64,000 nt of DNA from Terriglobia bacterium (GCA_009838515.1 VXRL01000040.1:32949-96948); one strand, 5' to 3'. Positions 14,456-62,849 are shown, counted from the stretch's first letter. The notes: generated by a model from the letters alone, not told the origin. Program-made: numbers and translations.

Positions 14456-14468
14456 CCATCCCAGCGCC

Positions 14469-23025: not shown

Positions 23026-23104
23026 TGGTAGGCCCGAGCGGACTCGAACCGCTGACCTCTACCGTGTCAAGGTAGCGCTCTAACCAAAACTGAGCTACGG
23101 GCCT
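23026..23104 (-). tRNA. tRNA-Val (anticodon GAC), CCA encoded
   Basis: Minus-strand sequence AGGCCCG-TA-GCTC-AGTTTTGGTTA-GAGC-G-CTACC-TTGACAC-GGTAG-AGGTC-AGCGG-TTCGAGT-CCGCT-CGGGCCT-A-CCA folds as a cloverleaf. The 7-nt anticodon loop TTGACAC gives anticodon GAC. Confidence 0.9.
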
Positions 23105-24249: not shown

Positions 24250-24253
24250 TCCC

Positions 24254-29166: not shown

Positions 29167-29338
29167 TCAGCAAGCCGACCGCACGACGTTCTTGCATCCA
29201 TTCCGCTAGCAGCTGCCCACCCCGTGTGCGTTGATGCCTCCCGGGACTGGTTGCGATTCTCCGATCTACTCCGTAGCCCGCTCGAACGTCACGAGACCGT
29301 GCCTCTTCAAGGTATGATGCGGGTTGAGGACGATAGCG

Positions 29339-30580: not shown

Positions 30581-31713
30581 TTCGGCCGGCGCTATTGGCG
30601 CTGGCCATCATCGCCGGGGTCGCAGCTTGGCCCCAGGAGCCGTTTCTGCCGGCAGTTGACCACTCCCAGCACCCCTTGATCGAGGTGGACGAGGCCGAAC
30701 CGACACCGTCGATGCGGATCCACATGGACGCCGATTCCATGGATGGATTTAACATCTTCTTGGAAACGCAGAACTTCCGCTTCACTCCTCAGAGCGTGGA
30801 CACGCTGCCGGTCTCGAACGAGGGCCATGCGCACCTGTATGTGAACGGCGAGAAAGTGGCTCGCATATACTCGCCCTGGCACCACCTCTCCAGCAAGCTG
30901 CTTCGCGACGGGATCAACCGTGTCGAGGTCGAGTTCAGCACCAACGACCATTCGGTTTGGGCCCTGGCCGGCGTGCCGATCGGCGCGGACGTGCTCATTG
31001 ATACACGCGTCATGGAAGGGGATCCAATCCTTCGTGAGGACGTCAGCTATACGCTGGACTGGGATTGGGGGGCGGCGGACCCTCGCCCAGACGGCGGCTG
31101 GACGGTTCGGACGGACAAGGGCTACCACGTGCAGGTCGATAGCGGTCAGATCGTCAGCCGAAATCTCGAACTGGTTCCGTGCCACGTAGCGCCCCCGCCC
31201 GCGCCGCAAGCGTCGATATTCGGCTGGCCCGGGCCAAGCCGGGTGTTTGCAGGGCACAGCAGCCTGATTCCGAACGAATCGAAGATCACTGCTTCATACG
31301 TGGAGGATCTAGCAGCACCGCGGGAGATATTTCTGGAGAAGCGGGTCGTCACCGATCCGGAGTACTGCCAAGCACACTACCTCTTGGCTCGTGAGCGAGG
31401 ATCCCCTCCGGGGTCTCTAACACTTGATGTTTCAGGCACATGGAGTAACTCTTCTGAGAAATCACGCCAGCCGTTCAATATCAGGTCCGCTGCTGCTTAC
31501 GGGGAGTTTAGGCCGTTGCAGCTTCGTGACGGTGTCAAGCTGGGCCGACGCCTGATCGTGGGTGGGATCGATGCCAGAGTGCGCCGCTGTCTGGACACAT
31601 TATTCAACGGAATCGACTTCGCGGACGGCACCTCAGACTCCGACGGCATGCAGGTCCTGCGAAACCTGGTGGCAGACACAACAGTGCTAGTCAACGATGT
31701 CAAAGGGCTCTAG
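30577..31713 (+). CDS. Hypothetical exported protein with His-rich motifs, translationally coupled to the upstream YHYH gene
   Basis: ORF 30472..31713 trimmed to the GTG at 30577, which overlaps the upstream TGA (GTGA). Hydrophobic N-terminus VIRPALLALAIIAGVAAW. Motifs HSQHPL, EGHAHLYVNGEKVARIYSPWHHL, NDHSVW. No family recognised for the C-terminal ~230 aa. Confidence 0.6.
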   Translation: MIRPALLALAIIAGVAAWPQEPFLPAVDHSQHPLIEVDEAEPTPSMRIHMDADSMDGFNIFLETQNFRFTPQSVDTLPVSNEGHAHLYVNGEKVARIYSPWHHLSSKLLRDGINRVEVEFSTNDHSVWALAGVPIGADVLIDTRVMEGDPILREDVSYTLDWDWGAADPRPDGGWTVRTDKGYHVQVDSGQIVSRNLELVPCHVAPPPAPQASIFGWPGPSRVFAGHSSLIPNESKITASYVEDLAAPREIFLEKRVVTDPEYCQAHYLLARERGSPPGSLTLDVSGTWSNSSEKSRQPFNIRSAAAYGEFRPLQLRDGVKLGRRLIVGGIDARVRRCLDTLFNGIDFADGTSDSDGMQVLRNLVADTTVLVNDVKGL

Positions 31714-31879
31714 CACCGGTGCAGTGTGAATCGTAAAGAGCTTGCAATAGTGGCGCTCCGTCAGTGCGATTGGATTCCGGTTCGGAAACAACGGCGCTCG
31801 AACCAGCGTCTTGCAGAGTAGCTGGGCGGGCGTGTTTCATTGATCGATCCGCCTGGCCAGACTCAGGAGATTGAATAAG

Positions 31880-33049
31880 ATGCCCGCGAGATCCCTCGTC
31901 TTCGCTGCCGTCGGGCCGGTCGGCCTGTTGCTGGCGTTACCCGCGGCCTCAGCAAACAACCCCTGTCCCAGTGATGCGTTCATGGATGTGAGCGATTCGC
32001 CGGGAGCGGGAGAGGGTTATCCCCGTCCGCGGCTAGAGGTCGAGTGCGCTAGCGACGAACTCGTGGTGAGCAGCAATGCCATTCCGCACTACGAATTTAT
32101 TCAAATCACCCCAAACCCGCTGGTCGAACTCAATCGCGACTACCGCATGCCGCTGAACCCGAAGCTGGCCGAACAGCCGAGCCCGCTGCCGCTGCTTGGG
32201 CCGTCCGGCGTCGCGATCAACGGGATTCCGCTGTTCGGACCGAACGAGGGCCCGGCACCCCCTCCGGGCTTCGGAGATCCAATCTACAACGCGATCATGG
32301 ATTCGTGCATGGGGCACACGGCGCGACAGTACCACTATCACGCGCTGATCGAGAGCTGCTTCGACATCGCGCGGGAGGCAAACGAGCCATCGCCGATTCT
32401 CGCGTTCGGCTCGGACGGTTTCCCGGTCTACGGTCCGTTCGGCTGCCGTGACAAAGAGTGCTCGGAGATCATCGAGTACCGGAGCAGTTGGGAGCGGCTG
32501 CGCGCGCCGCGGATAGACGCATGGGACGCGTATCGCTTCGTCCCGAAGAGTGGCATCGAGTACTTGGACCGCTGCAACGGCCACATCGGCGACGACCAAG
32601 GCGGTGCCTACCACTATCACGCTACGGCGACGTGGCCGTACATCATGGGATGCTTCTCCGGCACGCCCTCGGCCGATGCAGGCAGGGAATCAGATCGCCA
32701 AATCAGCCGTCGCGACGGCGGTCGGGGCCGCCCTCCGGGCGACGATCCCCGACCCACCGTCGAGCAAGTGGCTCGAGCAGCGGCTGAGCTGGCGATTGAC
32801 GAGGCGAAGCTCGCGGAAGCGCTGCGCTTGACCGACGGTCGGGTTGCGCCGATGAACTACGCCGCGGCCGCACGAGCCCTCGACATCGACGCACGAGACC
32901 TATATGAGGCGCTGGGAGTGACGGCGCAGTTGCCTCCGCCCGGCGCTCGGGGCGGTCTGGGCGGTCGCAGGCGTGGCATCGGGCCGCCGCTTCGAGGGAC
33001 CGTACCACGACGTAGGCCGCCGCCAGAGGGTCAGCGACCGCGACGGTGA
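31880..33049 (+). CDS. YHYH-motif protein (exported), paralog of 29339..30580
   Basis: ORF begins at TTG 31871; ATG at 31880 preferred (AGGAG 10 nt upstream). IPHYEF, NGIPLFGPNEG, DSCMGHTARQYHYHAL, DRCNGHIGDDQGGAYHYHATATWPYIMGCFSG. C-terminal helical module plus Pro/Gly/Arg-rich end. Confidence 0.8.
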   Translation: MPARSLVFAAVGPVGLLLALPAASANNPCPSDAFMDVSDSPGAGEGYPRPRLEVECASDELVVSSNAIPHYEFIQITPNPLVELNRDYRMPLNPKLAEQPSPLPLLGPSGVAINGIPLFGPNEGPAPPPGFGDPIYNAIMDSCMGHTARQYHYHALIESCFDIAREANEPSPILAFGSDGFPVYGPFGCRDKECSEIIEYRSSWERLRAPRIDAWDAYRFVPKSGIEYLDRCNGHIGDDQGGAYHYHATATWPYIMGCFSGTPSADAGRESDRQISRRDGGRGRPPGDDPRPTVEQVARAAAELAIDEAKLAEALRLTDGRVAPMNYAAAARALDIDARDLYEALGVTAQLPPPGARGGLGGRRRGIGPPLRGTVPRRRPPPEGQRPRR

Positions 33050-33307: not shown

Positions 33308-34522
33308 ATGCTTTCAACCCGCCTAGTTCTGTCCGCATGCTTGGTAATCGCAGCATTTGCCGCATGCGGCGGAACCGATCAGTCCACCGATACCAGCGGC
33401 GACGGCCAGGCTGTCCGCTCGCTCACCGCGGAGGAATACTACGACAAGATCCACGGCGCTTGGCTCGGCCAGGCAGTCGCGGGCGCATTGGGGATGAGCG
33501 TGGAGGGCATGCACCACAGCGACCTCAAGCCCTTCCTCACCGAGTTGGGGCAGTGGCCGCTCAACGATTACATCAAGACGTTGCATTCCCGGAGAGATCC
33601 GAACCGCAAGCAATGGTACGTAGCGGATAACTGGGGCCCGACCGGATTCGGGCCGGACGACGACTCCCTGTACCAAATCGCGAACCTCCTCCTGCTCGAG
33701 GAGAAGGGCCCAGACATCACGAGCCAAGATATCGCCGACAAATGGCTAGCGTCGTTCTCTGTGTTCGAGGCTCAGAACTGCGGACGGGCGGTCAGGGTCG
33801 CCGAAAAGCTTATGAAGGAAGGTGTCAAGCCTCCCGAGTCCGGCAAGCACGAATTCGGCGAGTTCATGGGCGGCCAGATGAAGGGCGAGTTCTGGGGCTT
33901 CATGCTGCCCGGCAATCCCGCGGCGGCGGCGGAGTACGGGCGCATCGATGCCGAGGTCTCGTTCCATACCGACGGCGTCTACGGCGAGATGTTCATGGCT
34001 GCCCTCACCGCCGAGGCATTCTTCGAGTCGGATCCGACGAAACTGCTCGAGGCCGGTCTTGCGACCATCCCCGAGGACTGCGACTACGCCCGGTGCATCC
34101 GCGACGTGATGACTTGGCACGGGCAATGGCCCGACGACTGGGAAAAGACCCACGAGCAGATCGACGCCAAGTGGGCTCCGGAGGGAAGCGAGAAGCAGCG
34201 CCGGGTGTTCCCGAACAACGCTGTCAACGCACTGGCGCTGCTATACGGCGAGGGTGACTTCGACAAGACGATCTCGATCGCTGTCATGGCCGGCTGGGAC
34301 ACGGACACGAACGCGGGAGACGTCGGGCCGGTCATGGGGGTCATCCTGGGGCCCGGAGCGATCGCCGAGAAGTGGACCGCGCCCATCGCGAACATTTTTC
34401 GCTCTGATGTCAAGGGCGCGGAGGAGTGGAAGATCGATGAACTGGCGCGGCGGACGGCCGATATGGGCATGCGAATGACCGAGGCAAAGTCCTCCGGGCT
34501 TGTTGAGATCGTCAGCGAGTAG
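33308..34522 (+). CDS. ADP-ribosylglycohydrolase-family protein with lipoprotein-type signal
   Basis: ORF 33257..34522 trimmed to the ATG at 33308 (GGAG upstream). MLSTRLVLSACLVIAAFAACGG signal. IHGAWLGQAVAGALGMSVEG N-terminal motif and MAGWDTDTNAGDVGPVMGVILG C-terminal motif, typical of the ARH/DraG fold. Confidence 0.75.
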   Translation: MLSTRLVLSACLVIAAFAACGGTDQSTDTSGDGQAVRSLTAEEYYDKIHGAWLGQAVAGALGMSVEGMHHSDLKPFLTELGQWPLNDYIKTLHSRRDPNRKQWYVADNWGPTGFGPDDDSLYQIANLLLLEEKGPDITSQDIADKWLASFSVFEAQNCGRAVRVAEKLMKEGVKPPESGKHEFGEFMGGQMKGEFWGFMLPGNPAAAAEYGRIDAEVSFHTDGVYGEMFMAALTAEAFFESDPTKLLEAGLATIPEDCDYARCIRDVMTWHGQWPDDWEKTHEQIDAKWAPEGSEKQRRVFPNNAVNALALLYGEGDFDKTISIAVMAGWDTDTNAGDVGPVMGVILGPGAIAEKWTAPIANIFRSDVKGAEEWKIDELARRTADMGMRMTEAKSSGLVEIVSE

Positions 34523-34634
34523 AGATCCTGCTGCCTGTCCAGCTGCTCAGGCAAGGCGTGGCTTACTCGCACGATCTGCTCCGCCACCGCCGGATCCGTT
34601 GGCTTGCGCAGCTCGGCTTGGCCGAGGAATCAAC

Positions 34635-36080
34635 GTGAACCCCTACTCTGGCACCGGCACACTTCGGCGGCGGGACCTTTTCGCGCTGGGAGCGGCCACG
34701 GCGCTTGCCGGCTGTCGGCAGGACGCTGCGCCTCGTCCCAATATCTTGTTCGCGATCTCCGACGACCAGTCCTTTGCTCATACCGGCGCTTCCGGCGATC
34801 CTGTCGTCCGCACGCCCGTGTTTGACCGCATTTGCGCCGAGGGAGTCCGGTTTGAACACGCATTCTGCAATGCGCCGTCATGCACCCCGTCCCGGGGAGC
34901 GATCCTAACGGGACAAGAGTGCTACCGCCTCGAAGAGGGCGTCAACCTGTGGAGTTCCCTGCCCGCCAAGTTCGTCACCTACCCAGACCTGCTCGAAGCG
35001 GAGGGCTACCACATTGGCTATACGCGCAAGGGGTGGGGCCCTGGAAGCATCGAGGCTGGGGGCCGCTCTCGCAATCCTGCAGGTCCAAGGTACGAGGACT
35101 TCCAGTCCTTCTATGAGGCCAATCCGTCCGGATGTCCGTTCTGCTTCTGGTTTGGCAGCAGCGACCCTCATCGCGCCTACGAGAAGGGTTCGGGCTTGGC
35201 CAGCGGCCTGCGCCCGGAGGATGTGCCTGTACCTCCGTTTCTCCCTGACGACCCCGAGGTTCGCAGCGACATCCTGGACTACTACTTCGAAATCGAACGC
35301 TTCGACCGCGAACTCGGCGAAATCCTGTCGTTCTTAGAAGAGCGAGGTCAACTCGCGAATACCGTCGTCATCGTCACCAGTGACAACGGCATGCCGTTTC
35401 CGCGCGCCAAGGCGGACCTCTACGACTACGGGGCGCGTGTTCCGCTGGCCATCCGGTGGCCCGCAAGTGTCCCCGGGGAACGCGTGGTCACCGATTTCGT
35501 CAGCTTGGTCGACATAGCCCCAACCATCCTTGAGTCCGCCGGAATCGAGATTCCAAGCGATATGACAGGCCGCAGCCTGCTGACGCTGCTGGAGTCCGGT
35601 GAAGACGGCCGCGTCGACGCCACTCGCGACCACGTGATCTCGGTGCTCGAGCGCCACACGCCGTGGCGCGAAGGCAGGGTGGGATACCCCAAGCGCGCGA
35701 TCCGCACGGATCAATTCCTGTACATCCGGAACTACGAGCCCGACCGCTGGCCAGGGGGCGATCCGCCAATCTTGGGAGAGGTCGATCCGTCGCCCACCAA
35801 GGAGTTCATGCGCGCGCGCAGGGACGAACCGGGGTTGAAGCGCTACTACGAAGCAGCATTCGCTAAGCGCCCGAGCGAGGAATTGTACGATGTCGAGCGC
35901 GATCCCGGGCAGATGAACAATCTCGCCGCCGACGAGGCGCACGCCGAGATCAAGAGCGCCCTGGCCGCGAGGCTCGACCAGCATCTTCTCGCAACGGCTG
36001 ATCCGAGAGCCCTTGGTCACCCCCCTACTTGGGAGTCGGATCCGCACCACGGCAGACTCACGCTGGAGCAGCGTCGCTGA
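34635..36080 (+). CDS. Sulfatase (Cys-type), Tat-lipoprotein signal
   Basis: ORF 34500..36080 trimmed to the GTG at 34635 (GAGGA upstream). LRRRDLFALGAATALAGC (twin-Arg plus lipobox LAGC). ILFAISDDQS, active-site SCTPSRGAILTGQ, TSDNGMPFPRAK. Confidence 0.9.
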   Translation: MNPYSGTGTLRRRDLFALGAATALAGCRQDAAPRPNILFAISDDQSFAHTGASGDPVVRTPVFDRICAEGVRFEHAFCNAPSCTPSRGAILTGQECYRLEEGVNLWSSLPAKFVTYPDLLEAEGYHIGYTRKGWGPGSIEAGGRSRNPAGPRYEDFQSFYEANPSGCPFCFWFGSSDPHRAYEKGSGLASGLRPEDVPVPPFLPDDPEVRSDILDYYFEIERFDRELGEILSFLEERGQLANTVVIVTSDNGMPFPRAKADLYDYGARVPLAIRWPASVPGERVVTDFVSLVDIAPTILESAGIEIPSDMTGRSLLTLLESGEDGRVDATRDHVISVLERHTPWREGRVGYPKRAIRTDQFLYIRNYEPDRWPGGDPPILGEVDPSPTKEFMRARRDEPGLKRYYEAAFAKRPSEELYDVERDPGQMNNLAADEAHAEIKSALAARLDQHLLATADPRALGHPPTWESDPHHGRLTLEQRR

Positions 36081-40054: not shown

Positions 40055-41590
40055 CTATTCGTAGGCTGGTTCGGTCACCCCGTACGTCTTTCGCAAGCGT
40101 CCAAGTTCTTTCTTCAACTCGGCGGTAACGCTCTCCATCCCTGCTTGGCCGTAGATGCTCTGCGTTTCCTCAGGATTGCGCTCGAGGTCAAAGAGCTCCC
40201 ACTCGTCGCTTTCGTAGAACCGGATCAACTTGTATCGATGGGTCCTGACACCCTCATGTGCCGGAACGCCGTGCGCGACCTGGCTCTCGTAGTAGTGGTA
40301 GTAGAACGAGTCGCGCCAATTCCTCGGGACGTTGCCCTGCAAGAGCGGTACCAGGCTGCGACCCTGCATGTCGGGCGGGACGTCCACTCCGGCGACCTCC
40401 AAGAACGTCTCGGCGTAGTCAAGGTTCGAGACCAGCTCGCGACTGGTCGAACCGGGCTTGACAACGCCCGGCCAACGCACCACCAACGGCGTCCGCAGAG
40501 ACTCCCGATACATCCAGCGCTTGTCGAACCAGCCGTGCTCGCCTAGGTAGAAACCCTGATCCGAGCTATAGATGACAACCGTGTTCTCAGCCAATCCCGT
40601 CTCGTCGAGGTAGCGCAGGATCCTGCCGATGTTGTCATCGACGGAGGCGATGCAGCGCAGGTAGTCCTTGATGTAGCGTTGGTACTTCCAGCGAATCAGG
40701 TCCTTGCCTTGGAGGTTGGCCTTCTGCATCGCCTCGTTCTTGGGGCCGTAGACGGCATCCCACATCGCCTTCTGCGCGGGGGTCAGCCGCCCATAGCTGT
40801 TCATCCACTGCCGCAGCACGCGGTCGTCCTCCGGCGTGTCGGGTGGAGGATTGATCTTCAGGTCATGCGCCGAGACCATGTGCCGACCGATCTCCATCCG
40901 GTTCTCGGCGGCAGGCGAGGCCCGTCCCGAGTAGTCATCGAATAGCGTCGGCGGCTCCCAAATGTGCTGTCCGTCGTACAGCGAGAGATGTTCCGGGCCG
41001 GGCATCCAGTTGCGGTGGGGCGCCTTGTGCTGGCTCATCAGCATGAAGGGCTTGTCTTGATCGCGCCGTTCCTTGAGCCACTCCAAGGAAAGGTCGGTGA
41101 TGATGTCCGTCGTATACCCCTCGTGGCGGCGACGAGTGTCGTCAGGCCCGACGCGCATGTCAGGGTTGTAATAGGCACCCTGGCCCGGCAAGACTTCCCA
41201 GGCGTCGAATCCAGTCGGAGCAGTCTTGAGATGCCACTTGCCGAACATGGCGGTCTGGTAGCCCGCCGCTTGCAGCAGCTTCGGAAACGTCTGCTGCGAG
41301 CCGTCGAAACGCAGGCGGTTGTCCAAGACGCCATTGAGATGGCTGTATTTCCCCGTCAGAATCACTGCGCGGCTCGGCGCGCAGATCGAGTTCGTGACCA
41401 GAGCCCGGTCGAAGCGCATGCCCTCACGGGCAATGCGGTCGATGTTCGGGGTGTGGTTGATCATCGATCCATAGGCACTGATCGCCTGATAGGCGTGATC
41501 GTCGGTGAAGATGAAGATGATGTTCGGCTTGTCGGTCGCGAAAGACAGCGATGGCGCAAGTGCAAGGGCAAGCGTGGCAAGGATTCGCAT
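40055..41590 (-). CDS. Sulfatase (Cys-type), paralog of 20272..21732
   Basis: ORF trimmed to the ATG at 41590 (signal peptide [18 protein letters not shown]). [10 protein letters not shown], active-site [49 protein letters not shown]. Confidence 0.9.
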
Positions 41591-41752
41591 ATCGCTGTGA
41601 ATTCTACCGAATTGCCGGTCTTCGGGGCACGCCGCGCGGTGACCGGCGGTTGCGGGCCGCACATGTGTAAACCAACCAGGGCGGGTCCCAACTCGTGAGA
41701 TCGCGCCTCCTCGAGAGCACTTCGACCCGCTGTCTCAATACAATGGGCAGAA

Positions 41753-42450: not shown

Positions 42451-43884
42451 CTACCGATCCGCCAGCCTTGGCGACGGATGCTGGGCACCCATCCGCTCCC
42501 ACCACGCCTCAAGCCGCTCCGTGAGAGCCGTCGTGATCTGCGGCTTCGCGCCGGCGAGATTGCGTCGTTCTCCGAGATCGTCCACTAAGTCGTAAAGTTC
42601 TGTGCGCGAGTCTTCGTAGTAGCGCAACAACTTCCAGCGTCCAAAGCGCAGCGCGCTTACGGGAGATGTCGTGGCGTAGTAGTGCGGATAGTGAAAGTAC
42701 AGCGCCGCCCGGTCAGGGTTGTGGTCAGGGTCCTTGAGCAAAGGCGTCAGGTCAATGCCGTCCACGGTTCGGTTGTACTCACGGTCACCAGGCAGACCAG
42801 CTGCCGACAGGATCGTGCGGTAGTAGTCGATGCTGCTGATCGGAACGTCGCTCTCAGCCCCGGGCGGGGTGACACCGGGCCAGCGGACGATGGCCGGGAC
42901 GCGGATCCCGCCCTCGTAGAGCGATCCCTTGCCCGAGCGCAGCGGAGTGTTGTCGGTGACCTGCATCCCATCGAACTGGTTGACGTAGCCGCCATTGTCC
43001 GAGGTGAGGATGACCAACGTGTTATCGGCGACGCCGAGATCGTCCAGCGTGTCAAGCACCCTGCCTACGTTCTCATCGAGGGCATGGACCATCGCCGCGT
43101 AGTGTGGGTTGCGGTGCAGCATGCCTTCCCGAATTCGCTGTCGGTAGCGTTCCACGATTGCAGGCTTGCCTTCGATCGGCGTGTGCACGGTGTGGAAGGC
43201 CAGATGCATGAAGAAGGGCTTGCCGCGCTCGGTTCGCAGAATCCGAATGGCCTCCGACGTGAGCCGATCTGTCAGGTACTCGCCCGTTTGGCCGCCTCCA
43301 AGGTGGGGCACGTATCGCAGCCCCGAGAATGTCTGCGATCCGCTGTAGGGGTAGAAGAACGTCTGCGGGGCTCCCCACAAGGTGCCGCCGACGTTGTAGT
43401 CGAAACCCTGCGTTTGCGGGTAGTACTCGGCCGTTCCCAGATGCCACTTGCCCACGTGCGCCGTCATGTAGCCGGCCTCGTGCAGGACCTCCGCAATGGT
43501 GACCTCGTCGTGGGGCAAGCTGTCCCGGGTGATCGGCGGGAGGAGGGGCCGGTCGAGGGGCGGCCGCGTGGCGGCTTCCCGCCATATCGTCATGTGTAAT
43601 TTCGCCGGGTGCTTGCCGGTCATGATGGACGCCCGCGTGGGACTGCATACGGGCGACGCTGAGTATGCAATGGTGAAGCGCATCCCTTGGCTGGCCAGCG
43701 CATCGATGCGCGGCGTGCGGTGCAGATCGGAGCCGTACCCCTCCAGATCCGCCCACCCCATGTCGTCGACCAAGATGAAGAGGACATTGGGCCGCTGCTG
43801 CGCTCCTGCCCACGACACCAGCAAGAATGCAGGTAGGGCCCTGCGCAAGCAGTCCTTGATTACGCTCATGAAGTCAGTTTGCAT
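42451..43884 (-). CDS. Sulfatase (Cys-type), exported
   Basis: VLFILVDDMGWADLEGYG, active-site VCSPTRASIMTGKH, GKWHLG, TSDNGG...GGIRVP. Confidence 0.9.
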   Translation of the reverse strand: MQTDFMSVIKDCLRRALPAFLLVSWAGAQQRPNVLFILVDDMGWADLEGYGSDLHRTPRIDALASQGMRFTIAYSASPVCSPTRASIMTGKHPAKLHMTIWREAATRPPLDRPLLPPITRDSLPHDEVTIAEVLHEAGYMTAHVGKWHLGTAEYYPQTQGFDYNVGGTLWGAPQTFFYPYSGSQTFSGLRYVPHLGGGQTGEYLTDRLTSEAIRILRTERGKPFFMHLAFHTVHTPIEGKPAIVERYRQRIREGMLHRNPHYAAMVHALDENVGRVLDTLDDLGVADNTLVILTSDNGGYVNQFDGMQVTDNTPLRSGKGSLYEGGIRVPAIVRWPGVTPPGAESDVPISSIDYYRTILSAAGLPGDREYNRTVDGIDLTPLLKDPDHNPDRAALYFHYPHYYATTSPVSALRFGRWKLLRYYEDSRTELYDLVDDLGERRNLAGAKPQITTALTERLEAWWERMGAQHPSPRLADR

Positions 43885-43974: not shown

Positions 43975-46900
43975 ATGCCACTGCCCCTTCCTAGATCGCG
44001 CAAAGCGCTTTGGCTGCTCGGCTTGGCGTTCGCCGTCCTGGCCTCGTTCGGAGTGTACCTAAACGCTCGCCCCGACATCCTGTTCCTCGGCTTTCCCAGC
44101 ATGTACCGCTATTTGCTGGCGGAGAGCGCCAGCCAGAGCGGCGTGCGCTACCACTACTGGAGCCCAGAGAAGTTGGACAACCCTAGGGCGGGCCAGCCGG
44201 ATTTCAGCGGCTACAAGGTGATCTACGTCAGCGGCCGGCGCTCCGATCCGCTGAGCCGCCCGGTGCGCCGCGCCCTTCAGGAGGCTGGCGAGTCGGGCTC
44301 CAAGGTGATCGTGCTACCGGCCCATGACACGGCCCGGCTCGGCGTGGGGAACGCCGACTTCAAGAAGGAAGACCGCTGGATCGACGACTACTGGCGGTTC
44401 GGCGGCGTGACCAACATGGCTCGTCTGCTGCAGACATCGGCCGCTCGCTACTCGGGCCAAGACGCCGAAATACTCCCACCGGAGCCAACGCCGGACGATG
44501 GCTACTACCATCCCGGGTCTCCAAGCCTCTTCACTACGACTGAAGATTACGAGGACTGGTACACACGCTCCGGCCGCTTCCAGCAAGGCAGCCCAAAGGC
44601 CCTGATTGACTTCGCCGATGGCTGGCGCCTGGGCATGAGCGGAGCAACCGATGCCATCGTGCGGGCGTTCGAAGAGGGAGGCTTCAACACGGCCGCCATC
44701 TTCGGCACCGCCCAGGCCGCCCCCTTCGCGCTGGAGTACGGGCCCGATATATTGATCTCACGCAAGCACGGCCGCTGGTGGCTCGGGGAGCAGGGCGTCG
44801 AAGTGCTGGAAGAAAGACTCGACGTCCCGATCCTGCGAGGTCTCTCGCTGTTGTTCACAGGCGAGACGTTCGGCGACTACCAGAAAACCCGCGCCGGCAT
44901 CCGCGACGCCGGCCTGATCATGGGCGCGATGGTGCCTGAGCTGGACGGAGCGATCCAGCCAACTCTGATCGAGGGCCTGGATTCGGCATGGTACGGCCGC
45001 CGCTCCGAAGCTTTCCGCGCCGAGCGCATCGACTTGCTGGTGCAGCGCGCCCGGCGCTGGGTCCGCCTGCGCAAGCTCGCGAATTCGGAGAAGAAGGTCG
45101 CGATCTTCTATGTGTCGGGAATCGGCAAGGGCAGGATTACCGCGGCCAGCCTCAACGTGCCGAGCAGCATGCTGCGCTTCCTGGCCGCGATGCGGCGAGA
45201 CGGCTATGCAGTCTCTGACCCACCATCGGACGAGCAGGCGCTGCTGGCGGAGATGCTCGACAAGGGCCGCAACGTGAGTTCGGGACGGCCGCGCGATCTG
45301 GAACGGCTGGCCGAACGCGAGGGCGTCCTGCTGCTCCCGGTGGACGGCTACCTGAGTTGGTTCGAGGGATTGCCGGATGCCATGCGGGCTGAGGTGATTG
45401 ATTCCTTCGGGCCGCCGCCGGGCGATCTGATGACCGTCGAACGGGACGGCCGGCAGTTTTTCGTGGTGCCCAAGCTTGACTACGGAAACGTGGTGGTGCT
45501 GCCCCAGCCTGTGCGCGGGGCTCAAATGGATGCCAAGCTTCAGCACAACGACAAGGTTCCCCCACCCCACCAATACCTTGCGGTGTATTGGTGGCTGCGC
45601 GAAGGCTGGCAGGCCGACGCCATCGTCAACTACGGCACGCACGGCACGCACGAATTCTTGCCCGGACGCCCGCTCGGCCAATTGGCTGACGACTGGTCAG
45701 ATCGCACCATCGGCCCGCTGCCCAACCTCTATGTCTATGTCATGGACAACGTAGGCGAGGCCCTGATCGCAAAGCGCCGGGGAGCGGCCGTGACGGTCAG
45801 CCACCAGATTCCGCCGGTGGAAGCTGCCGAAGTCGCCAAAGGCGAACCGAAGATAGCGTCTCTCTACCGTGCCTCCCGGCAGTTGCTCGATGCCGCGCCC
45901 GGCGCGCTCAAGGAACGCCTCCGAGAACAGGTCCGCACCATTGGCGCGGATCTCGAAATGGACCGCGACATCGAATCCGACTGGGCGATCGCGGCCCCTA
46001 CGGACCCCGAGGTGGAGAAGCTCGCGAACCACATCCACCTCATCAACGAAGACCGCATTCCGCTAGGCCTGCACGTTCACGGCCAGCCCAACACCCCCGA
46101 CGAGCTGGCACCCATGGTCACGGCCATGCTCGGCAACGAAGTTCTGGCGGGTTCGCCATGCCGCCCGGGCGCGGATGCAACCTGCCCCACTCAAGCCCGC
46201 GAGCGGGCGGAGGCCGCGGTCCGCCGCGCTCTGGCCGGCGACGCCCCTGTTCCGGCATTGGGACCTCTCGGCGCCAAGGTCGAGCGGATCGGCGCAGCCC
46301 TTGCCCAAACTCCCAACGAGATCAGCCACACGCTAGGCGCTTTGGCGGGGGCATACGTGCCGCCTGGCGGCGGCGGCGATCCGGTGCGCAATCCGCAGGC
46401 GCTGCCAACGGGCCGGAACCTGCACGGAATCAATCCGGCGGAAGTGCCGACCAAGGCGGCATGGGAGATCGGCACCAGCCTCGCAGACGCACAGCTGAAC
46501 GCAGAATTCGAGCGGCTTGGGCGCTGGCCCAGGAAGATCGGCTTCACGCTGTGGAATACCGAACTGATCCGCCAGCACGGCACGGACCTAGCCCATGTGA
46601 TGCACCTGCTCGGGGTGCGCCCGATTTGGGACCACAACAACGTGGTGGAAGACGTGGAACTGATACCCAGCGCCGAGCTGGGACGCCCGCGCGTGGACGT
46701 GGTGATCCAAGCGGCGTCGCTATTTCGAGACACCTTCCCGGATCGGATGAAGCTTCTCGACAAGGCCGTCCGGCTCGCTGCAAGCGCAACGGACGGGGAG
46801 AACTACATCGCCGAGCACGCCGAAGACGCCGAGCGGGAGCTCAAGCGATCCGGCATGGCCGCCAAGGATGCCAAGACTCTGGCGTTGGCGCGCATCTTCA

Positions 46901-47880
46901 GCAACTCCGCGGGCGGTTACGGGACCGGCCTGGTCGCCTCCATCGAGCGCAGCGGCAGTTTTGAATCGTCGGAGGGACTCACGGAGGCGTATCTGGCCAG
47001 AACCGGAGCCGTCTACACCGAAGGCTTCGAATGGGGGCAGCTTGCGCCGGACGCCTACCGCACGCACCTGCAGCACACCGATGCGGTCACGCTGAGTCGC
47101 TCCACGAACGTGGTCGGTGCCCTGACGCTGGACCACTACTTCGAGTACCTCGGGGGCATGACCATGGCCGTGCGCGACACGACCGGCAATGCACCCGAAA
47201 CCTACCTAGCCGACGTGCGCGACGCCCACCAGCCACGGATGGAGACCTTGCGGGAAGCGCTAGTCCGCGGGCTGCGGGGCAAGTTCTGGAACCCCAAGTG
47301 GATCGAAGCCCTGAAAGCCGAGGGCTTTTCCGGGGCCGTGGAAATGGCTCAGACGGCGACCAACCTATTCGGCTGGCAGGTCACCAAGCCGGAGGCGGTC
47401 GGCAGCGAGGCTTGGCAGAGGGTTCACGCGATCTATGTGGACGACTCGCTGGGCCTAGAACTGCCGCAGTGGTTCGACGCCAACAATCCGTTCGCCTTCC
47501 AAGAAATGATGGCGGTCATGCTCGAGTCGGCGCGGAAGGGGTATTGGAACGCCCAGCCAGACACCCTCAACTCGCTGGTACTGGACTACGCCCGCTCGCT
47601 CGAGCGCCACGGCGCATCGGGCAGCCCGCGCACGACGGGAAACCGTCCGTTCGAGGAATTTGTGGAGGTGTTGGTCGCGGCCTCGTCCGAGCCGGACCTG
47701 ATCTCGACGCTGCGCGAAGAACTCAGGGACGGCTCCAGCCCGCGCGTCGAGGGCCGCAGGCTGGTCGAACACGCAGCGCCGAGCACCTCAGGGCGCTTAA
47801 GTGTCACCACGCAGACTACTCTGGCCGCAGTTTTCCTGCTGCTGGGAGTGTTCGCGCTCGGCTGGCGTCGCCTGCGCTAG
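43975..47880 (+). CDS. CobN/Mg-chelatase H-family protein (1301 aa) with N- and C-terminal transmembrane anchors
   Basis: Family motifs VNYGTHGTHEFLPGR, YVPPGGGGDPVRNPQALPTGRNLHGINP, RPRVDVVIQAASLFRD. N-terminal RSRKALWLLGLAFAVLASFGVYL and C-terminal TTLAAVFLLLGVFALGWRRLR hydrophobic segments flanked by basic residues. Confidence 0.85.
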   Translation: MPLPLPRSRKALWLLGLAFAVLASFGVYLNARPDILFLGFPSMYRYLLAESASQSGVRYHYWSPEKLDNPRAGQPDFSGYKVIYVSGRRSDPLSRPVRRALQEAGESGSKVIVLPAHDTARLGVGNADFKKEDRWIDDYWRFGGVTNMARLLQTSAARYSGQDAEILPPEPTPDDGYYHPGSPSLFTTTEDYEDWYTRSGRFQQGSPKALIDFADGWRLGMSGATDAIVRAFEEGGFNTAAIFGTAQAAPFALEYGPDILISRKHGRWWLGEQGVEVLEERLDVPILRGLSLLFTGETFGDYQKTRAGIRDAGLIMGAMVPELDGAIQPTLIEGLDSAWYGRRSEAFRAERIDLLVQRARRWVRLRKLANSEKKVAIFYVSGIGKGRITAASLNVPSSMLRFLAAMRRDGYAVSDPPSDEQALLAEMLDKGRNVSSGRPRDLERLAEREGVLLLPVDGYLSWFEGLPDAMRAEVIDSFGPPPGDLMTVERDGRQFFVVPKLDYGNVVVLPQPVRGAQMDAKLQHNDKVPPPHQYLAVYWWLREGWQADAIVNYGTHGTHEFLPGRPLGQLADDWSDRTIGPLPNLYVYVMDNVGEALIAKRRGAAVTVSHQIPPVEAAEVAKGEPKIASLYRASRQLLDAAPGALKERLREQVRTIGADLEMDRDIESDWAIAAPTDPEVEKLANHIHLINEDRIPLGLHVHGQPNTPDELAPMVTAMLGNEVLAGSPCRPGADATCPTQARERAEAAVRRALAGDAPVPALGPLGAKVERIGAALAQTPNEISHTLGALAGAYVPPGGGGDPVRNPQALPTGRNLHGINPAEVPTKAAWEIGTSLADAQLNAEFERLGRWPRKIGFTLWNTELIRQHGTDLAHVMHLLGVRPIWDHNNVVEDVELIPSAELGRPRVDVVIQAASLFRDTFPDRMKLLDKAVRLAASATDGENYIAEHAEDAERELKRSGMAAKDAKTLALARIFSNSAGGYGTGLVASIERSGSFESSEGLTEAYLARTGAVYTEGFEWGQLAPDAYRTHLQHTDAVTLSRSTNVVGALTLDHYFEYLGGMTMAVRDTTGNAPETYLADVRDAHQPRMETLREALVRGLRGKFWNPKWIEALKAEGFSGAVEMAQTATNLFGWQVTKPEAVGSEAWQRVHAIYVDDSLGLELPQWFDANNPFAFQEMMAVMLESARKGYWNAQPDTLNSLVLDYARSLERHGASGSPRTTGNRPFEEFVEVLVAASSEPDLISTLREELRDGSSPRVEGRRLVEHAAPSTSGRLSVTTQTTLAAVFLLLGVFALGWRRLR

Positions 47881-57961: not shown

Positions 57962-59251
57962 ATGCATTGCCTGAAGCCTCCCCTCCGTCCGGCCGGGCTC
58001 ACTAGGAGGGACTTGCTGCGGGTCGCCGCAGCCTCGGCCGCACCCGTGCTCAGCCCCCAGGGCACGCTTGCTGCCGCTCGGGAGAAGGCCGCACCCCTCG
58101 ACTTGCGTGTCACGGACCTGAAGTCGTGGATAGTCAACCACTCAACAAGCAAGAATTACGTCTTTTGCAAGATCTACACCAACCAGGGCATCGTCGGTGT
58201 CGGCGAGGGATCGGTCACGTCCAAGGCGGCCACCATGAAGGCGGCGATCGACGAGCACCGGAGATACCTAGTCGGCCTGGACCCGACGGACATCGAAATG
58301 CACTGGCAGGCGATGTACCGCTGGCCGAGATGGCGGGGCGGCCCTATCCTCAATTCCGCGATCAGCGCGATCGAAATTGCGCTCTGGGACATTCTCGGCC
58401 AGGCAGTCGGCCAGCCGATCTACCAGCTGATCGGGGGCAAGGCCCGGACCCGGGTCCAGATGTACGTGCACCCGGGCGGCGGCCCGACGCCCGAGGCCTA
58501 TGCCGAACGATGGGTCGCGGCCCGCGAGGCTGGCTGGACCGCCGGAAAGGGCAGCTTCGTCACAACTCACGACGACGTGATCGAGCCGGTGCGTTCGGTC
58601 AGGGAAGGCATAGCCAACCTGAGGGCCGTGCGCGAGGCGGTCGGCGATGCCTTCGCGATCTGCATCGACGTGCACGGCAAGGCAACGCCGACCATGGCGA
58701 GCTCGTTCTGCAGGCAGGCCGAGCCGCTGGACCCTTACTTCGTGGAGGAGGCGACCCAGATCGAGGATTTGGAGGAGCTGGCGCGGCTGCGCTCGATGAC
58801 AACCATACCGCTCGCCACGGGGGAGAGGCTGTTCACCAAGTACGGCTTCTCCCAAATTTGCCACAGGCACCTTGTCGACTACATCCAGCCGGACGTGGTG
58901 CATTGCGGTGGGATTCTCGAGCTGAAGAAGATCGCCGCGATCGCCGAGGCGAACCGCATCGAGCTATGCCCGCACAATCCGCAGAGCGAGATATCGACGC
59001 TGGCCTCGCTGCACGTGGACTTCTCGACGCCGAACTTCGCGATCCAGGAGATCTCGTCCGGGAAGAGGGCTCCGTTCTGGGACGATTTCTTCCTCGGGGG
59101 CGGACCCCGCTACGAGGACGGATTCGCGCTGCCGCCGGACAGTCCGGGTCTGGGCGTGACGTTCGACGAGAAGGTCGGCGAGCGCCGGCCGTACGTCCCG
59201 GTGACTCGCCAGCAGCTGCGATTCCCGGACGGCGGAGTCGCGGACCACTGA
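57962..59251 (+). CDS. Enolase-superfamily (mandelate racemase/muconate lactonizing enzyme family) dehydratase-like protein with Tat-type signal
   Basis: LTRRDLLRVAAASAAPVLS. Capping domain VFCKIYTNQGIVGVGEG. Metal ligands CIDVHGK, FVEEATQ, ATGERLF. General base region QPDVVHCGGI. Confidence 0.85.
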   Translation: MHCLKPPLRPAGLTRRDLLRVAAASAAPVLSPQGTLAAAREKAAPLDLRVTDLKSWIVNHSTSKNYVFCKIYTNQGIVGVGEGSVTSKAATMKAAIDEHRRYLVGLDPTDIEMHWQAMYRWPRWRGGPILNSAISAIEIALWDILGQAVGQPIYQLIGGKARTRVQMYVHPGGGPTPEAYAERWVAAREAGWTAGKGSFVTTHDDVIEPVRSVREGIANLRAVREAVGDAFAICIDVHGKATPTMASSFCRQAEPLDPYFVEEATQIEDLEELARLRSMTTIPLATGERLFTKYGFSQICHRHLVDYIQPDVVHCGGILELKKIAAIAEANRIELCPHNPQSEISTLASLHVDFSTPNFAIQEISSGKRAPFWDDFFLGGGPRYEDGFALPPDSPGLGVTFDEKVGERRPYVPVTRQQLRFPDGGVADH

Positions 59252-59267: not shown

Positions 59268-60578
59268 TCACCAAGCGGCGACGCTCCCATCCTCGTGCCA
59301 GACGCGGCTCATGGGCTTGGTGCCCTTGAACGGATGCCGCGCCAGTGCCCGCTCGTCGACCTCGAATCCAAGGCCGGGCTTGTCTGGCAGGGGGAAATAC
59401 CCGTCCACCATTCGCATAGCCGGGAAGCCCAACCAGTCCTGCCACAGCAATTCCTTGAACGTTGGCTCCACGCCGGAGCAGATCTCCTGGACCATGAAGT
59501 TGGGCATCGCCGCGTCCACGTGTAGAGTCGCAATGCCCCCGATGGGTCCCTCGCAGGCATGCGGGGCCATGTAGCATCCCGAGGCCTCGGCCATCGCGCC
59601 CACCTTCCAGAGGGCAGTGATTCCTCCCACATGGTTGATGTCGCACTGGAGAATGTCCACAGTGCCGTCCTCCAGCAGCTGCTGGGTGGAGTAGTGCGCC
59701 ACGAGCCGCTCGCCTGTGGCGATCGGGACCGTGGTTCTACGCGCGATCCGAGCCATCGCCTTGTAGTTCTCCGGGGGGCACGGCTCCTCGATGAACATTA
59801 GGTGGAGCGGCTCGACCTCCCTGCAGATGATCGAGGCTACGGTCGGGCTGGTCTTGGCGTGGAAGTCGATGCCGATGTCGATCCCGTCCCCGAGTCCTTC
59901 ACGGAGCATCTGGATTCGCTGGACCGCGTCGTTGATCCGCTGGTTGGTCTCGATCCACTCATAGTATCCGGAGATCCCACTCTTGAACGCCGTGATCCCG
60001 AGATCATCCGCGGACTCGCGCAGCGCGGCGAGCTGCTCGGGCGTGTTTGCCCGGACATGGTAGTAGCCGCGGACGCCGCGGGGATCGACGGGCCCTCCCA
60101 GCATGCGGTACACCGGCTGGCCGAGCACTTTCCCACGGATGTCCCACAGTGCCTGGTCGATGCCGGCAATCGCCGAGCCGAGGATGGGCCCAGCGCGGTA
60201 GAACGCGTGGATGTACATGCTCTGCCAGATGTGCTCGACACGCATGGGGTCCTGGCCGATGTAGAACTCCTTGAGGTCGTCGATGGTCTGCAGGACGGCG
60301 CCAGCCTTGCCTTCTAAAGTGGCCTCTCCCCAACCGACGACGCCCTGGTCTGTCTCCAGCTTGACGAACACGTACGGGCGGTCGGAGTCGTCTTCCCACG
60401 TAACACCGAACGTCTTAAAGCCGGTGATACGAATCGGACCGGGCGCTGCCGCGAGGGCCGCGGCGGCAACGGGAGCGCACCCGCACCCGGGGAGCGCCGC
60501 CGCATGTCGACCCGCTCCGGCGACCGCAGACGAAGCGCCCGCCATCACGGCTCCTCCGAAGAACTGGCGTCGGTTCAT
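59268..60578 (-). CDS. Enolase-superfamily dehydratase-like protein with Tat-type signal
   Basis: MNRRQFFGGAVMAGASSAVAGA. VFVKLETDQGVVGWGEA. GIDFHAK, FIEEPCPP, ATGERLV, QCDINHVGGI. The start overlaps the upstream gene's stop by 4 nt. Confidence 0.85.
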   Translation of the reverse strand: MNRRQFFGGAVMAGASSAVAGAGRHAAALPGCGCAPVAAAALAAAPGPIRITGFKTFGVTWEDDSDRPYVFVKLETDQGVVGWGEATLEGKAGAVLQTIDDLKEFYIGQDPMRVEHIWQSMYIHAFYRAGPILGSAIAGIDQALWDIRGKVLGQPVYRMLGGPVDPRGVRGYYHVRANTPEQLAALRESADDLGITAFKSGISGYYEWIETNQRINDAVQRIQMLREGLGDGIDIGIDFHAKTSPTVASIICREVEPLHLMFIEEPCPPENYKAMARIARRTTVPIATGERLVAHYSTQQLLEDGTVDILQCDINHVGGITALWKVGAMAEASGCYMAPHACEGPIGGIATLHVDAAMPNFMVQEICSGVEPTFKELLWQDWLGFPAMRMVDGYFPLPDKPGLGFEVDERALARHPFKGTKPMSRVWHEDGSVAAW

Positions 60579-61729
60579 GCGGCGTACTCCTGCAATGCGG
60601 CCTCGTCAATCTCGAGCCCAAGTCCCGGACCCGTCGGCAGCGTGAAAAATCCGTTGGCGACCTGTGGCACGGACTCTCCGGCAATCGCGGCGTGCATCTT
60701 CCGCTCCGCTTCGTCCGTCGAATAGGCCACTTCCTGAACCACGAAGTTGGGGATCGACGCTGCGACCTGCAGCGCTGCGGCGGTGCCGATGGGTCCGCCT
60801 CGATGGAACGGCGCCACCGCCGTGTAATAGGCCTCCGCCAGCGAAGCCAACTGGCGCACGCCGCTGATTCCATGAAGTCCGATGTCCGGCCTGAGCACGT
60901 CGACGACCTGCATGCGCAGCAGATCTTGGAATCGACCGCTGGAAGTGAGAAACCTGCCCCATCCGAGTGGCGTGACGGATTCGTGCGAGATTTTCTGCAG
61001 CGCGGAGTCGCTGATCGGGGTGGTCGGCTCATCCATCCACATCAGATGGAACGTCTCAAGGCGCGCGGCCAGTCCGGCCGCCTCGGCGCCAGTGGTGCGT
61101 CCGGCACAGTCGAGGACGAGGTCCGTGGCGCCAGCCTGACGCAGCCGCCGGAGCATGGCTTCGGTGTTGGCGAAGAACTCCCTTCCCCGAGTGGGGGTTC
61201 CCTGAGGAAGCAGCGCAGGCACCGAGAACGCCCGGAAGCCGGAATTCCGGGCAGCGGAGACCTGCTGGCCCAGTTCCGCTTCGCTGCTCCCTTGCAGCGA
61301 GGCCATGGCCCGCGCCTTGTCGCGGGTCCGCCCCGCAAGCAGGTCATACACCGGGGCATCCGCAATCTTCCCCCGCACGTCCAGGAGAGCGATGTCGACT
61401 GCGCCGCGAATTGCCGGTGCGGCTGCAGACAGGGAGACGCGGACGGCCACGCTCGCCATGGCGTCCTTGCCGACCAACGCGTTGGCATACCGCTGTGCCT
61501 CAGCGACTGACGAGGCGGGATCCGCACCGGCGCTGGTCTCTCCGTAGCCGGTCACTCCTGCATTGGTGCGCAAGGCGATGACCAGCCGCGGGACAGCCTC
61601 CGCACTCGAGCGGATCGCCCAAGCATCCAGACCGCTGATAGCGATCTCAGGGGTCGTGCCTGTGGCCGCCGGGGTGCCCGCCGCCAGCGACGCCAATCCG
61701 AACAGCTTCTTCGACCGATCAGACGACAT
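60575..61729 (-). CDS. Divergent enolase-superfamily paralog (third metal ligand apparently missing)
   Basis: VLDCAGRT, WMDEPTTP, but PLGWGRF where the paralogs have ATGERL. RPDIGLHGISG. Signal-like N-terminus MSSDRSKKLFGLASLAAGTPAA. Confidence 0.75.
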   Translation of the reverse strand: MSSDRSKKLFGLASLAAGTPAATGTTPEIAISGLDAWAIRSSAEAVPRLVIALRTNAGVTGYGETSAGADPASSVAEAQRYANALVGKDAMASVAVRVSLSAAAPAIRGAVDIALLDVRGKIADAPVYDLLAGRTRDKARAMASLQGSSEAELGQQVSAARNSGFRAFSVPALLPQGTPTRGREFFANTEAMLRRLRQAGATDLVLDCAGRTTGAEAAGLAARLETFHLMWMDEPTTPISDSALQKISHESVTPLGWGRFLTSSGRFQDLLRMQVVDVLRPDIGLHGISGVRQLASLAEAYYTAVAPFHRGGPIGTAAALQVAASIPNFVVQEVAYSTDEAERKMHAAIAGESVPQVANGFFTLPTGPGLGLEIDEAALQEYAA

Positions 61730-62657: not shown

Positions 62658-62754
62658 CGGACACCTCCCACTTGAATACTGACACACCCGCCGTTGCGCG
62701 TACGACCGCGAGCGGACACCCTGCGACACCCCCAGAAAAAATCTTTCCGTCAGT

Positions 62755-62820: not shown

Positions 62821-62849
62821 TCTTGGGACACATGCAAAGGAGGAAAGCC

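Follow-up and report, generated by a model that had tools for sequence, protein, structure and literature searches.

A membrane-anchored CobN-fold protein of Bryobacterales, encoded outside any hmu operon, is probably a periplasm-facing dechelatase of the HmuS type

Analyzing a 64,000-nucleotide stretch of DNA from a Terriglobia bacterium (GCA_009838515.1, VXRL01000040.1:32949-96948; hereafter the window), we found that the gene at 43975..47880 encodes a CobN-fold protein with a transmembrane helix at each end, which is probably an ATP-independent, periplasm-facing metalloporphyrin dechelatase of the HmuS type, with haem as its likely substrate. As such it represents an iron-harvesting enzyme type that was characterised only recently, in a divergent acidobacterial form without an operon, rather than a system of a new kind. 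The source is a metagenome-assembled genome (MAG) of the Bryobacterales (Acidobacteriota), and the relatives of the protein in GTDB genomes come almost all from Bryobacterales MAGs. The sequence is identical to P0177 (NCBI MXY68745.1/MYK10021.1), which is located ~2.10 Mb along a 2,984,437-bp ENA contig and is annotated as cobaltochelatase subunit CobN, a label that both NCBI and JGI give to the whole protein cluster.

The open reading frame (ORF), as given by the ORF list and its translation, starts with ATG and encodes 1301 amino acids (aa), its span including the stop codon, and its G+C content at third codon positions (GC3 = 0.81) is in line with the other genes of the window. The initial annotation had placed the protein in the CobN family on the basis of two signatures. 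Both are found in the translation (...NYGTHGTHEFLPG... and ...GGGDPVRNPQALPTGRNLHGINP...), and the Pfam family CobN-Mg_chel (PF02514) matches end to end, residues 138-1197 aligning with profile positions 2-1089 of 1090 at 954.9 bits (cut-off 24.5). The protein is a full-length member of the class I (CobN/ChlH) chelatase superfamily, as had been proposed. Within the superfamily, none of the nine NCBIfam equivalog models for CobN/BchH was matched at its trusted cut-off: the CobN model NF004644 came closest with 804.7 bits (cut-off 1248), TIGR02257 gave 515 bits (cut-off 822) and TIGR02025 (Mg-chelatase ChlH/BchH) gave 602 bits (cut-off 829). The N-terminal ChlH domain DUF3479 (PF11965), which Prochlorococcus ChlH carries, had no match in the window protein.

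The best sequence match in the PDB was HmuS of Bacteroides thetaiotaomicron (BtHmuS; 9d26) with 597 bits, ahead of ChlH (421) and CobN (391), the alignment spanning residues 35-1291 and including the C-terminal helix; identity to BtHmuS is ~31%. An AlphaFold2 (AF2) model of residues 30-1229, with a mean predicted local distance difference test score (pLDDT) of 91.3 and a predicted template modelling score (pTM) of 0.89, points to the six-domain head/neck/body fold of class I chelatases. Foldseek returned HmuS 9d26 as the top match of this model (TMq 0.88, E 1e-90), followed by M. tuberculosis CobN (TMq 0.80) and ChlH (0.72-0.74). HmuS being the top match in both sequence and fold, the non-biosynthetic, envelope-facing role of the HmuS kind that the initial annotation had considered is strengthened.

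The initial annotation had also suggested a phylogeny including CobN, ChlH and HmuS. In a neighbour-joining tree (100 bootstraps, 1227 well-occupied columns), all membrane-anchored forms were separated from CobN and ChlH in 100/100 bootstraps, and all acidobacterial sequences grouped together with a bootstrap of 100. The window protein belongs to a clade that we call A (66-100% identity; bootstrap 100), which joined the clades A' (59% identity) and B (55-58%) with a bootstrap of 97, A and A' grouping at 71. The remaining acidobacterial relatives form clades C-E (45-54%).

The membrane topology was assessed from hydropathy, charge bias, Cys depletion and homology to HmuS. Only two segments of the protein passed the hydropathy threshold (19-residue windows, Kyte-Doolittle >=1.6), residues 10-31, which hold the highest hydropathy peak of the protein (2.12), and residues 1275-1300. 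The N-terminal flank (MPLPLPRSRK) carries 3 K/R and the C-terminal tail reads WRRLR, so that both the basic-then-hydrophobic anchor and the C-terminal helix with its basic tail described in the initial annotation are present. Both helices and the basic tail recur in practically every full-length relative, at identities as low as ~30%, whereas none of nine canonical CobN/ChlH matches has terminal helices. Among 91 homologues, the mean number of Lys plus Arg residues in the flanks on the cytoplasmic side was 2.9 before the first and 3.6 after the second helix, compared with 1.4 and 1.2 in the flanks on the body side, and 95% of the homologues satisfy the positive-inside rule for a topology with both termini in and the body out, in agreement with what had been deduced from the window protein. 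The Cys count offers an independent, soft indicator of an extracytoplasmic body: membrane-anchored acidobacterial proteins hold 0-4 Cys per ~1300 aa, whereas cytoplasmic CobN/ChlH proteins hold 6-14. In clade A the conserved Cys number two, C729 and C737 of a CX7C loop (modelled with less confidence, pLDDT 63-74), and as far as can be read from the sequence this pair is compatible with a periplasmic disulfide. Given that the N-terminal hydrophobic segment is 19 residues long, that no AXA cleavage site is conserved among the relatives and that the first beta-strand of the head domain begins at aa 35 in the AF2 model, the segment is more probably an uncleaved anchor than a cleaved signal peptide, and both readings place the body outside the cytoplasm. 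Together, these data argue for two short cytoplasmic termini and a large periplasmic body.

A C-terminal sorting signal (PEP-CTERM, MYXO-CTERM, LPXTG, IPTL-CTERM and others) was considered and rejected, consistent with the remark in the initial annotation that the tail resembles such a signal only superficially. The 48-aa tail of the window protein matched no NCBIfam sorting-domain model even at E<=10, and no conserved PEP-like motif was seen before the C-terminal helix across clade A. The C-terminal 40 aa of one relative of the clade-B type (P0071) scored 21.9 bits on the NCBIfam MYXO-CTERM model (cut-off 20), which is probably mimicry by a transmembrane helix followed by a basic tail.

To compare individual residues, the BtHmuS numbering was rebuilt from printed alignments, and 17 residues were verified against PMC12583661. 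H265-G266-R267 of the window protein corresponds to the neck His-254-Gly-Arg of HmuS, where His-254 is the ligand of haem site I; H556 corresponds to the essential His-538; and D1053-H1054-x-x-E1057 corresponds to Asp-1208/His-1209/Glu-1212. All three are invariant in the acidobacterial group, and the neck motif is absent from canonical CobN/ChlH. The loop containing H556 reads NYGTHG, differing in its first two residues from HFG(T/A)HG of HmuS, and LTLDHYFEYLGG (aa 1050-1061) stands at the place of the HmuS LSLDHxxEFMGG motif. CobN carries HxGKHG and DSDDYxQYHGG at the corresponding sites, neither of which occurs in the window protein. In the head domain, R88 and R89, part of a G-R-R sequence, occupy the position of Met-79/Gly-80; within the acidobacterial group R89 is invariant and R88 nearly so. 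Between the flanking helices of the HmuS Met-rich insertion, the window protein has ~50 residues with the CX7C loop and no Met enrichment, compared with ~225 residues in HmuS. By these alignments, the window protein is HmuS-like in its metal-handling centre but not in the surface that contacts the porphyrin or in the haem ligand of the head domain.

Next to the gene, we found none of the partners on which classical chelatases depend. Pfam scans of ~40 large, likely coding ORFs of the window detected no AAA+ or VWA protein of the ChlI/ChlD/CobS/CobT type, as the initial annotation had stated for the vicinity of the gene, and no cob genes are present within the 64 kb. The relatives of the gene have a different set of neighbours. 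In all acidobacterial relatives outside clade A (A', B and C-E), genes for an ExbB-like protein and a DUF2149 protein lie immediately upstream, and most of these relatives also have a ~219-aa polytopic HmuT-like protein (sub-threshold DUF2162 match, E 9.5e-4) upstream and a TonB-dependent receptor downstream. The gene order in Proteobacteria is receptor, CobN-like, ExbB-like and DUF2149, and that of a canonical hmu operon is receptor, HmuY, CobN-like, two small proteins, ExbB-like and DUF2149. The DUF2149 proteins are 44-46% identical across three phyla, and in these three phyla the ExbB-like/DUF2149 pair adjoins the CobN-like gene even without an adjacent TonB-dependent receptor. An ExbD-like fold of DUF2149 was not recovered, its AF2 model being poor (pLDDT 63.5) and Foldseek finding nothing (best E 0.63). 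The relevant partners of the membrane-anchored branch are the ExbB-like and DUF2149 (HmuU/HmuV-like) proteins and not AAA+ proteins.

Clade A departs from this arrangement. No ExbB-like, DUF2149 or TonB-receptor gene lies within 10 kb in ~37 clade-A loci, that of the window included. Clade-A genes instead stand in the order ABC ATPase, sulfatase (- strand), cobN-like, miaB-like radical-SAM, BFN nuclease, aldo-keto reductase (- strand), lepB and carA, a housekeeping neighbourhood kept in ~34 of the 37 genomes. The initial annotation had supposed an HmuS-like protein in another phylum and another gene context, and both hold: the gene belongs to the Bryobacterales of the Acidobacteriota and lies outside any hmu operon, beside miaB-like and BFN genes. 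The same ENA contig also carries a full clade-B operon (L096:9127-18493; record 2,465,181-2,485,579), ~370 kb from the window gene. Its genes encode an HmuT-like protein, a MotA/ExbB-like protein of 213 aa, a DUF2149 protein of 132 aa, a CobN-like protein of 1314 aa, a TonB-dependent receptor of 962 aa and a PQQ_2 beta-propeller of 404 aa. The call for the HmuT-like gene covers 88 aa, and its reading frame is open over ~219 aa and intact; no hmuY is present in this hmu-like operon. The CobN-like paralog is 56% identical to the window protein over its full length and is likewise publicly annotated as cobaltochelatase subunit CobN. In the sister clade A' (L007:6145-11990; also L040 and L073), HmuT-like, ExbB-like and DUF2149 genes are found upstream, and no TonB-dependent receptor is found downstream. 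A miaB-like gene lies ~5.5 kb upstream of the clade-A' locus and is possibly a remnant of the neighbourhood that now surrounds clade A.

Only three fixed differences (R440, Q840 and H874) distinguish clade A from the operon-type copies, and 324 conserved columns are common to both. Paralog-specific specificity residues were looked for among them, and three positions do not suffice as evidence of a new substrate. The three differences, the 324 shared columns and the synteny of ~34 of 37 genomes point to a gene that has been maintained and is functional, with its chemistry unchanged. Together, the data indicate that clade A is an old, vertically inherited and selectively maintained paralog, specific to the Bryobacterales and no longer linked to the ancestral module of HmuT-like, ExbB-like, DUF2149 and TonB-dependent receptor genes.

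Some genomes seemed to hold the clade-A gene without any partner. That idea was overturned by a search with DUF2149, which revealed an unlinked locus of two genes, MotA/ExbB-like and DUF2149 of the 112-126 aa type (L097:9415-10381 and L098:945-1911), always flanked by rpiB on one side and by a class III aminotransferase gene on the other. The pair was found in a genome in which only the clade-A copy was detected, in the same context in a related MAG assembly, and in at least nine further clade-A genomes; its DUF2149 protein is also listed for the MAGs (MXY/MYK accession series) carrying the exact window protein. DUF2149 proteins of this orphan type form a separate clade of their own. The unlinked pair may serve the orphan clade-A gene as its cognate partner.

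Based on the fold and on what is reported for HmuS, the following course of events can be proposed. Anchored by a helix at each end, the six-domain body of ~1250 aa would sit on the periplasmic side of the cytoplasmic membrane, with its head domain kept by the N-terminal helix no more than ~5 residues from the bilayer. A metalloporphyrin, most probably ferrous haem already in the periplasm, would be bound, with the neck residue H265 possibly contributing to the entry site. H556 and H1054 of the central cleft, with E1057 tuning H1054, would then strip the metal, so that Fe2+ and the free porphyrin are released. Turnover would need neither ATP nor AAA+ partners, and reducing equivalents would be supplied by the membrane. 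HmuS itself is predicted to have N- and C-terminal helix anchors and to be periplasmic and ATP-independent (Nath et al., EMBO J 2025, PMC12583661), its activity depending on the membrane fraction and NADH and not on ATP (PMC12583661), and HmuS of P. gingivalis (HmuS-Pg) expressed in E. coli located to the inner membrane with periplasmic exposure (PMC13227078). BtuS1/2 of B. fragilis are likewise predicted to be periplasmic and membrane-anchored, and the use of haem iron in this organism is FeoAB-dependent (Rocha 2019, PMC6460266). As to the ExbB-like/DUF2149 pair, we put forward with considerable reservation that it replaced the AAA+ ATPases as a stator-like pair driven by the proton-motive force and serves the periplasmic (de)chelatase itself and not the receptor; the orphan gene and the unlinked pair would then form a minimal, dispersed and receptor-independent system.

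A number of observations weigh against a haem dechelatase. The acidobacterial group is sister to Bacteroidota HmuS at a bootstrap of 56 only, and the ~31% identity to BtHmuS resembles the identity to CobN over trimmed columns. R88 replaces Met-79, the head-domain haem ligand of HmuS, the ~120-aa Met-rich insertion is absent, and all five cleft residues that Nath et al. propose as propionate ligands are changed (S1014 to N, S1067 to A, Q1198 to S, S1199 to T and W1202 to V). Because all five propionate-cleft residues are changed, the tetrapyrrole or its binding mode may differ, and because the protein has neither Met-79 nor the Met-rich insertion nor the cleft residues by which Nath et al. define HmuS proper, we put haem forward as the probable substrate only by analogy with HmuS. 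The gene context is also silent on haem: no haem receptor, hemophore or feo gene lies near the window gene, and the TonB-dependent receptors of the acidobacterial paralogous operons lack the FRAP/NPNL haem-receptor boxes. No Fur box was recognisable near the window gene with an E. coli-type consensus, which is uninformative for Acidobacteria; allowing up to 6-7 mismatches, the search upstream of the window gene, of 34 clade-A orthologues and of 26 operon-type loci returned one weak match. The biochemistry of the family adds two reservations, as the B. fragilis btuS1/btuS2 mutants showed raised, not lost, dechelatase activity in crude extracts (PMC6460266), and the study of P. gingivalis HmuS could not prove catalytic turnover (PMC13227078).

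Several of these points would suit a protein that keeps the fold, the topology and the His/His/Glu chemistry and acts on something else, e.g. non-iron metalloporphyrins, chlorophyll-derived Mg-porphyrins or salvaged corrinoids, or that inserts a metal in the periplasm. The loss of Met-79 and of every propionate-cleft residue and the linked receptors without haem-receptor boxes favour it, two paralogs in one genome invite a division of substrates, the BtuS family was first proposed for 'salvage of metalloporphyrins' generally (Rodionov 2003, as cited in PMC6460266), and most clusters of the superfamily cannot be given a function (Nath et al., PMC12583661). We nevertheless regard another substrate or reaction as rather unlikely: three fixed positions between clade A and the operon-type copies give no sign of a changed pocket, neither the window nor any of six operon-type loci gave an Rfam match to a cobalamin riboswitch, and the membrane-anchored members that have been characterised biochemically all act on haem. 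Less probable still is a non-catalytic periplasmic chaperone of haem or porphyrin, passing tetrapyrroles from an outer-membrane receptor to inner-membrane proteins, or a regulator of another dechelatase. Rocha et al. conclude that BtuS1/2 modulate rather than provide dechelatase activity (PMC6460266), the P. gingivalis study keeps chaperone and transfer roles as possibilities (PMC13227078), and the conserved head/neck residue H265 would fit such a role. However, H556, H1054 and E1057 together with 324 other columns are strictly conserved across the acidobacterial clades, a conservation stronger than one would expect of a protein that only carries its ligand, and purified BtHmuS turns ferrohaem into protoporphyrin IX, a turnover that H538A abolishes (PMC12583661).

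The public name would make the protein a true, cytoplasmic CobN of an aerobic cobaltochelatase, or the H subunit of a Mg-chelatase, with AAA+ partners encoded elsewhere. The Pfam domain is indeed common to CobN, and the scan for cobS/cobT was confined to the 64-kb window. Yet the scores lie far under all equivalog cut-offs (e.g. 805 versus 1248 bits), all canonical matches lack the terminal helices, the CobN motifs HxGKHG and DSDDY and the ChlH PF11965 domain are missing, CobN and ChlH are split off in every bootstrap, no riboswitch or cob gene was found in the 64 kb, and the relatives neighbour ExbB-like, DUF2149 and TonB-receptor genes and not cob genes. The annotated CobN function is contradicted on five independent counts, and we consider it most improbable. 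Given that the protein is membrane-anchored and falls under every CobN equivalog cut-off, genomes may be wrongly credited with a step of the aerobic B12 pathway; the label 'cobaltochelatase subunit CobN' is a systematic misannotation in this respect.

With an HmuS-type dechelatase as the favoured explanation, the gene bears on the enzyme type as a whole. Dechelation of the HmuS type was shown biochemically only in 2025 and was described as primarily a trait of Bacteroidota. The loci described here establish the enzyme type, with its ExbB-like/DUF2149 partners, in Acidobacteriota (Bryobacterales) and Proteobacteria, and they indicate that a second copy can arise and become detached from the operon. 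As members exist that do without Met-79, the Met-rich insertion and the residues proposed to bind the propionates, what remains as candidate core machinery is the His/His/Glu centre together with the neck His. Furthermore, the locus is a natural test case for the question of which partner, the chelatase-like protein or the receptor, the ExbB-like/DUF2149 pair works with.

The features of the gene and of its surroundings are collected in Table 1. The window as a whole resembles a locus for the use of sulfated glycans. Sulfatase genes are unusually dense in it (at least eight, seven of them in Table 1), and CarboxypepD_reg/OMP_b-brl_4 receptors (two) and FG-GAP/ASPIC proteins accompany them, a content consistent with Bryobacterales; another sulfatase gene adjoins the clade-B operon (L096:18732-20210). 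Two large, well-coded ORFs had no Pfam family above threshold, one of 1011 aa (14307-17342, + strand) and one of 413 aa (30472-31713, + strand), the latter lying between two YHYH-domain genes (29324-30580 and 31871-33049). The sole Rfam match in the window was a tRNA gene (23029-23104, - strand). Around the clade-A gene, neither a promoter nor a terminator rose above shuffled expectation. At the end of the window, a gene for a NUDIX/NrtR-type regulator (61764-62729, - strand) is divergent from an ARPP-1 domain gene (62823-63809, + strand), and three genes of the mandelate racemase/enolase family lie adjacent (57962-59251; 59268-60578 and 60575-61729, both - strand).

Table 1. Features of the clade-A gene and of other genes in the window (positions counted from the first nucleotide of the window)
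Feature	Position	Strand	Basis
Complete gene, membrane-anchored CobN-fold HmuS/BtuS-like clade-A protein	43975..47880	+	ORF list, translation, Pfam PF02514
Predicted cytoplasmic N-terminal flank, MPLPLPRSRK	43975..44004	+	Translation, positive-inside statistics
Predicted N-terminal transmembrane signal-anchor, ~aa 11-29, ALWLLGLAFAVLASFGVYL	44005..44061	+	Hydropathy, conserved in homologues
Predicted periplasmic six-domain chelatase body, aa 30-1229 as modelled	44062..47661	+	AF2, Foldseek
R88-R89 at the HmuS Met-79/Gly-80 position, ligand absent	44236..44241	+	Alignment to BtHmuS
H265-G266-R267 neck motif	44767..44775	+	Alignment, invariant
N552-YGTHG-557 motif with H556	45628..45645	+	Alignment to HmuS His-538
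C729-X7-C737 loop, site of the HmuS Met-rich insertion	46159..46185	+	Only two cysteines of the protein; clade-A specific
LTLDHYFEYLGG, aa 1050-1061, H1054/E1057 equivalent to HmuS His-1209/Glu-1212	47122..47157	+	Alignment, invariant
Predicted C-terminal transmembrane helix, ~aa 1278-1297, TTQTTLAAVFLLLGVFALGW	47806..47865	+	Hydropathy; aligns with the C-terminal transmembrane helix of BtHmuS
Predicted cytoplasmic basic tail, RRLR	47866..47877	+	Translation, positive-inside statistics; no match to sorting-domain hidden Markov models
Sulfatase genes	13058-14455, 20272-21732, 24188-25702, 34500-36080		
Sulfatase genes	27532-29166, 40055-41662, 42451-43884	-	
CarboxypepD_reg/OMP_b-brl_4 receptor, ~1100 aa	211-3627	-	
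CarboxypepD_reg/OMP_b-brl_4 receptor, ~1100 aa	8786-12148		
FG-GAP/ASPIC protein	3661-5421		

Compared with known systems, the window protein has the same overall fold as canonical CobN (M. tuberculosis 7c6o) and ChlH (Synechocystis 4zhj/6ysg) and has in common with them the universally conserved His of the xxG(T/K)HG loop; at the second site, ChlH also has His-x-x-Asp, and CobN has Asp in place of the second His. Unlike the window protein, CobN and ChlH are cytoplasmic, lack transmembrane helices, are richer in Cys and are driven by ATP through CobS/CobT or ChlI/ChlD to insert metal during biosynthesis. Another known system is the BtuS family of CobN-related proteins (Rodionov 2003, as cited in PMC6460266; Rocha 2019): as on the contig of the window gene, two paralogs occur in one genome in Bacteroides fragilis, BtuS1 and BtuS2, which, like the branch of the window protein, are tied to the use of exogenous metalloporphyrins rather than to biosynthesis. 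Both B. fragilis copies lie in putative operons, whereas the window gene is fully unlinked from its partners and has a housekeeping neighbourhood (miaB-like, BFN, lepB and carAB). The clade-B paralog on the same contig has the terminal helices and the conserved residue set in common with the window protein, but it keeps the ancestral operon and the receptor, lacks the CX7C pair and is present in only part of the sampled clade-A genomes.

The nearest counterpart is HmuS, known from B. thetaiotaomicron (9d26/9p4s; PMC12583661) and P. gingivalis (PMC13227078). From the B. thetaiotaomicron protein the window protein differs in its ~31% identity, in Arg for Met-79, in a CX7C loop for the Met-rich insertion, in a cleft of N/A/S/T/V for S/S/Q/S/W and in NYGTHG for HFGTHG, and the gene differs in belonging to Acidobacteriota and in lying outside an hmu operon (hmuY, hmuR, hmuS and hmuTUV), without the HmuY hemophore. 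Nevertheless, the two proteins have in common the six-domain fold, a transmembrane helix at each end, a body predicted to be periplasmic, the lack of an AAA+ partner, the neck His-Gly-Arg and the equivalents of His-538 and His-1209/Glu-1212, and, as for HmuS, relatives of the window protein are encoded together with MotA/ExbB-like, DUF2149 and TonB-dependent receptor proteins.

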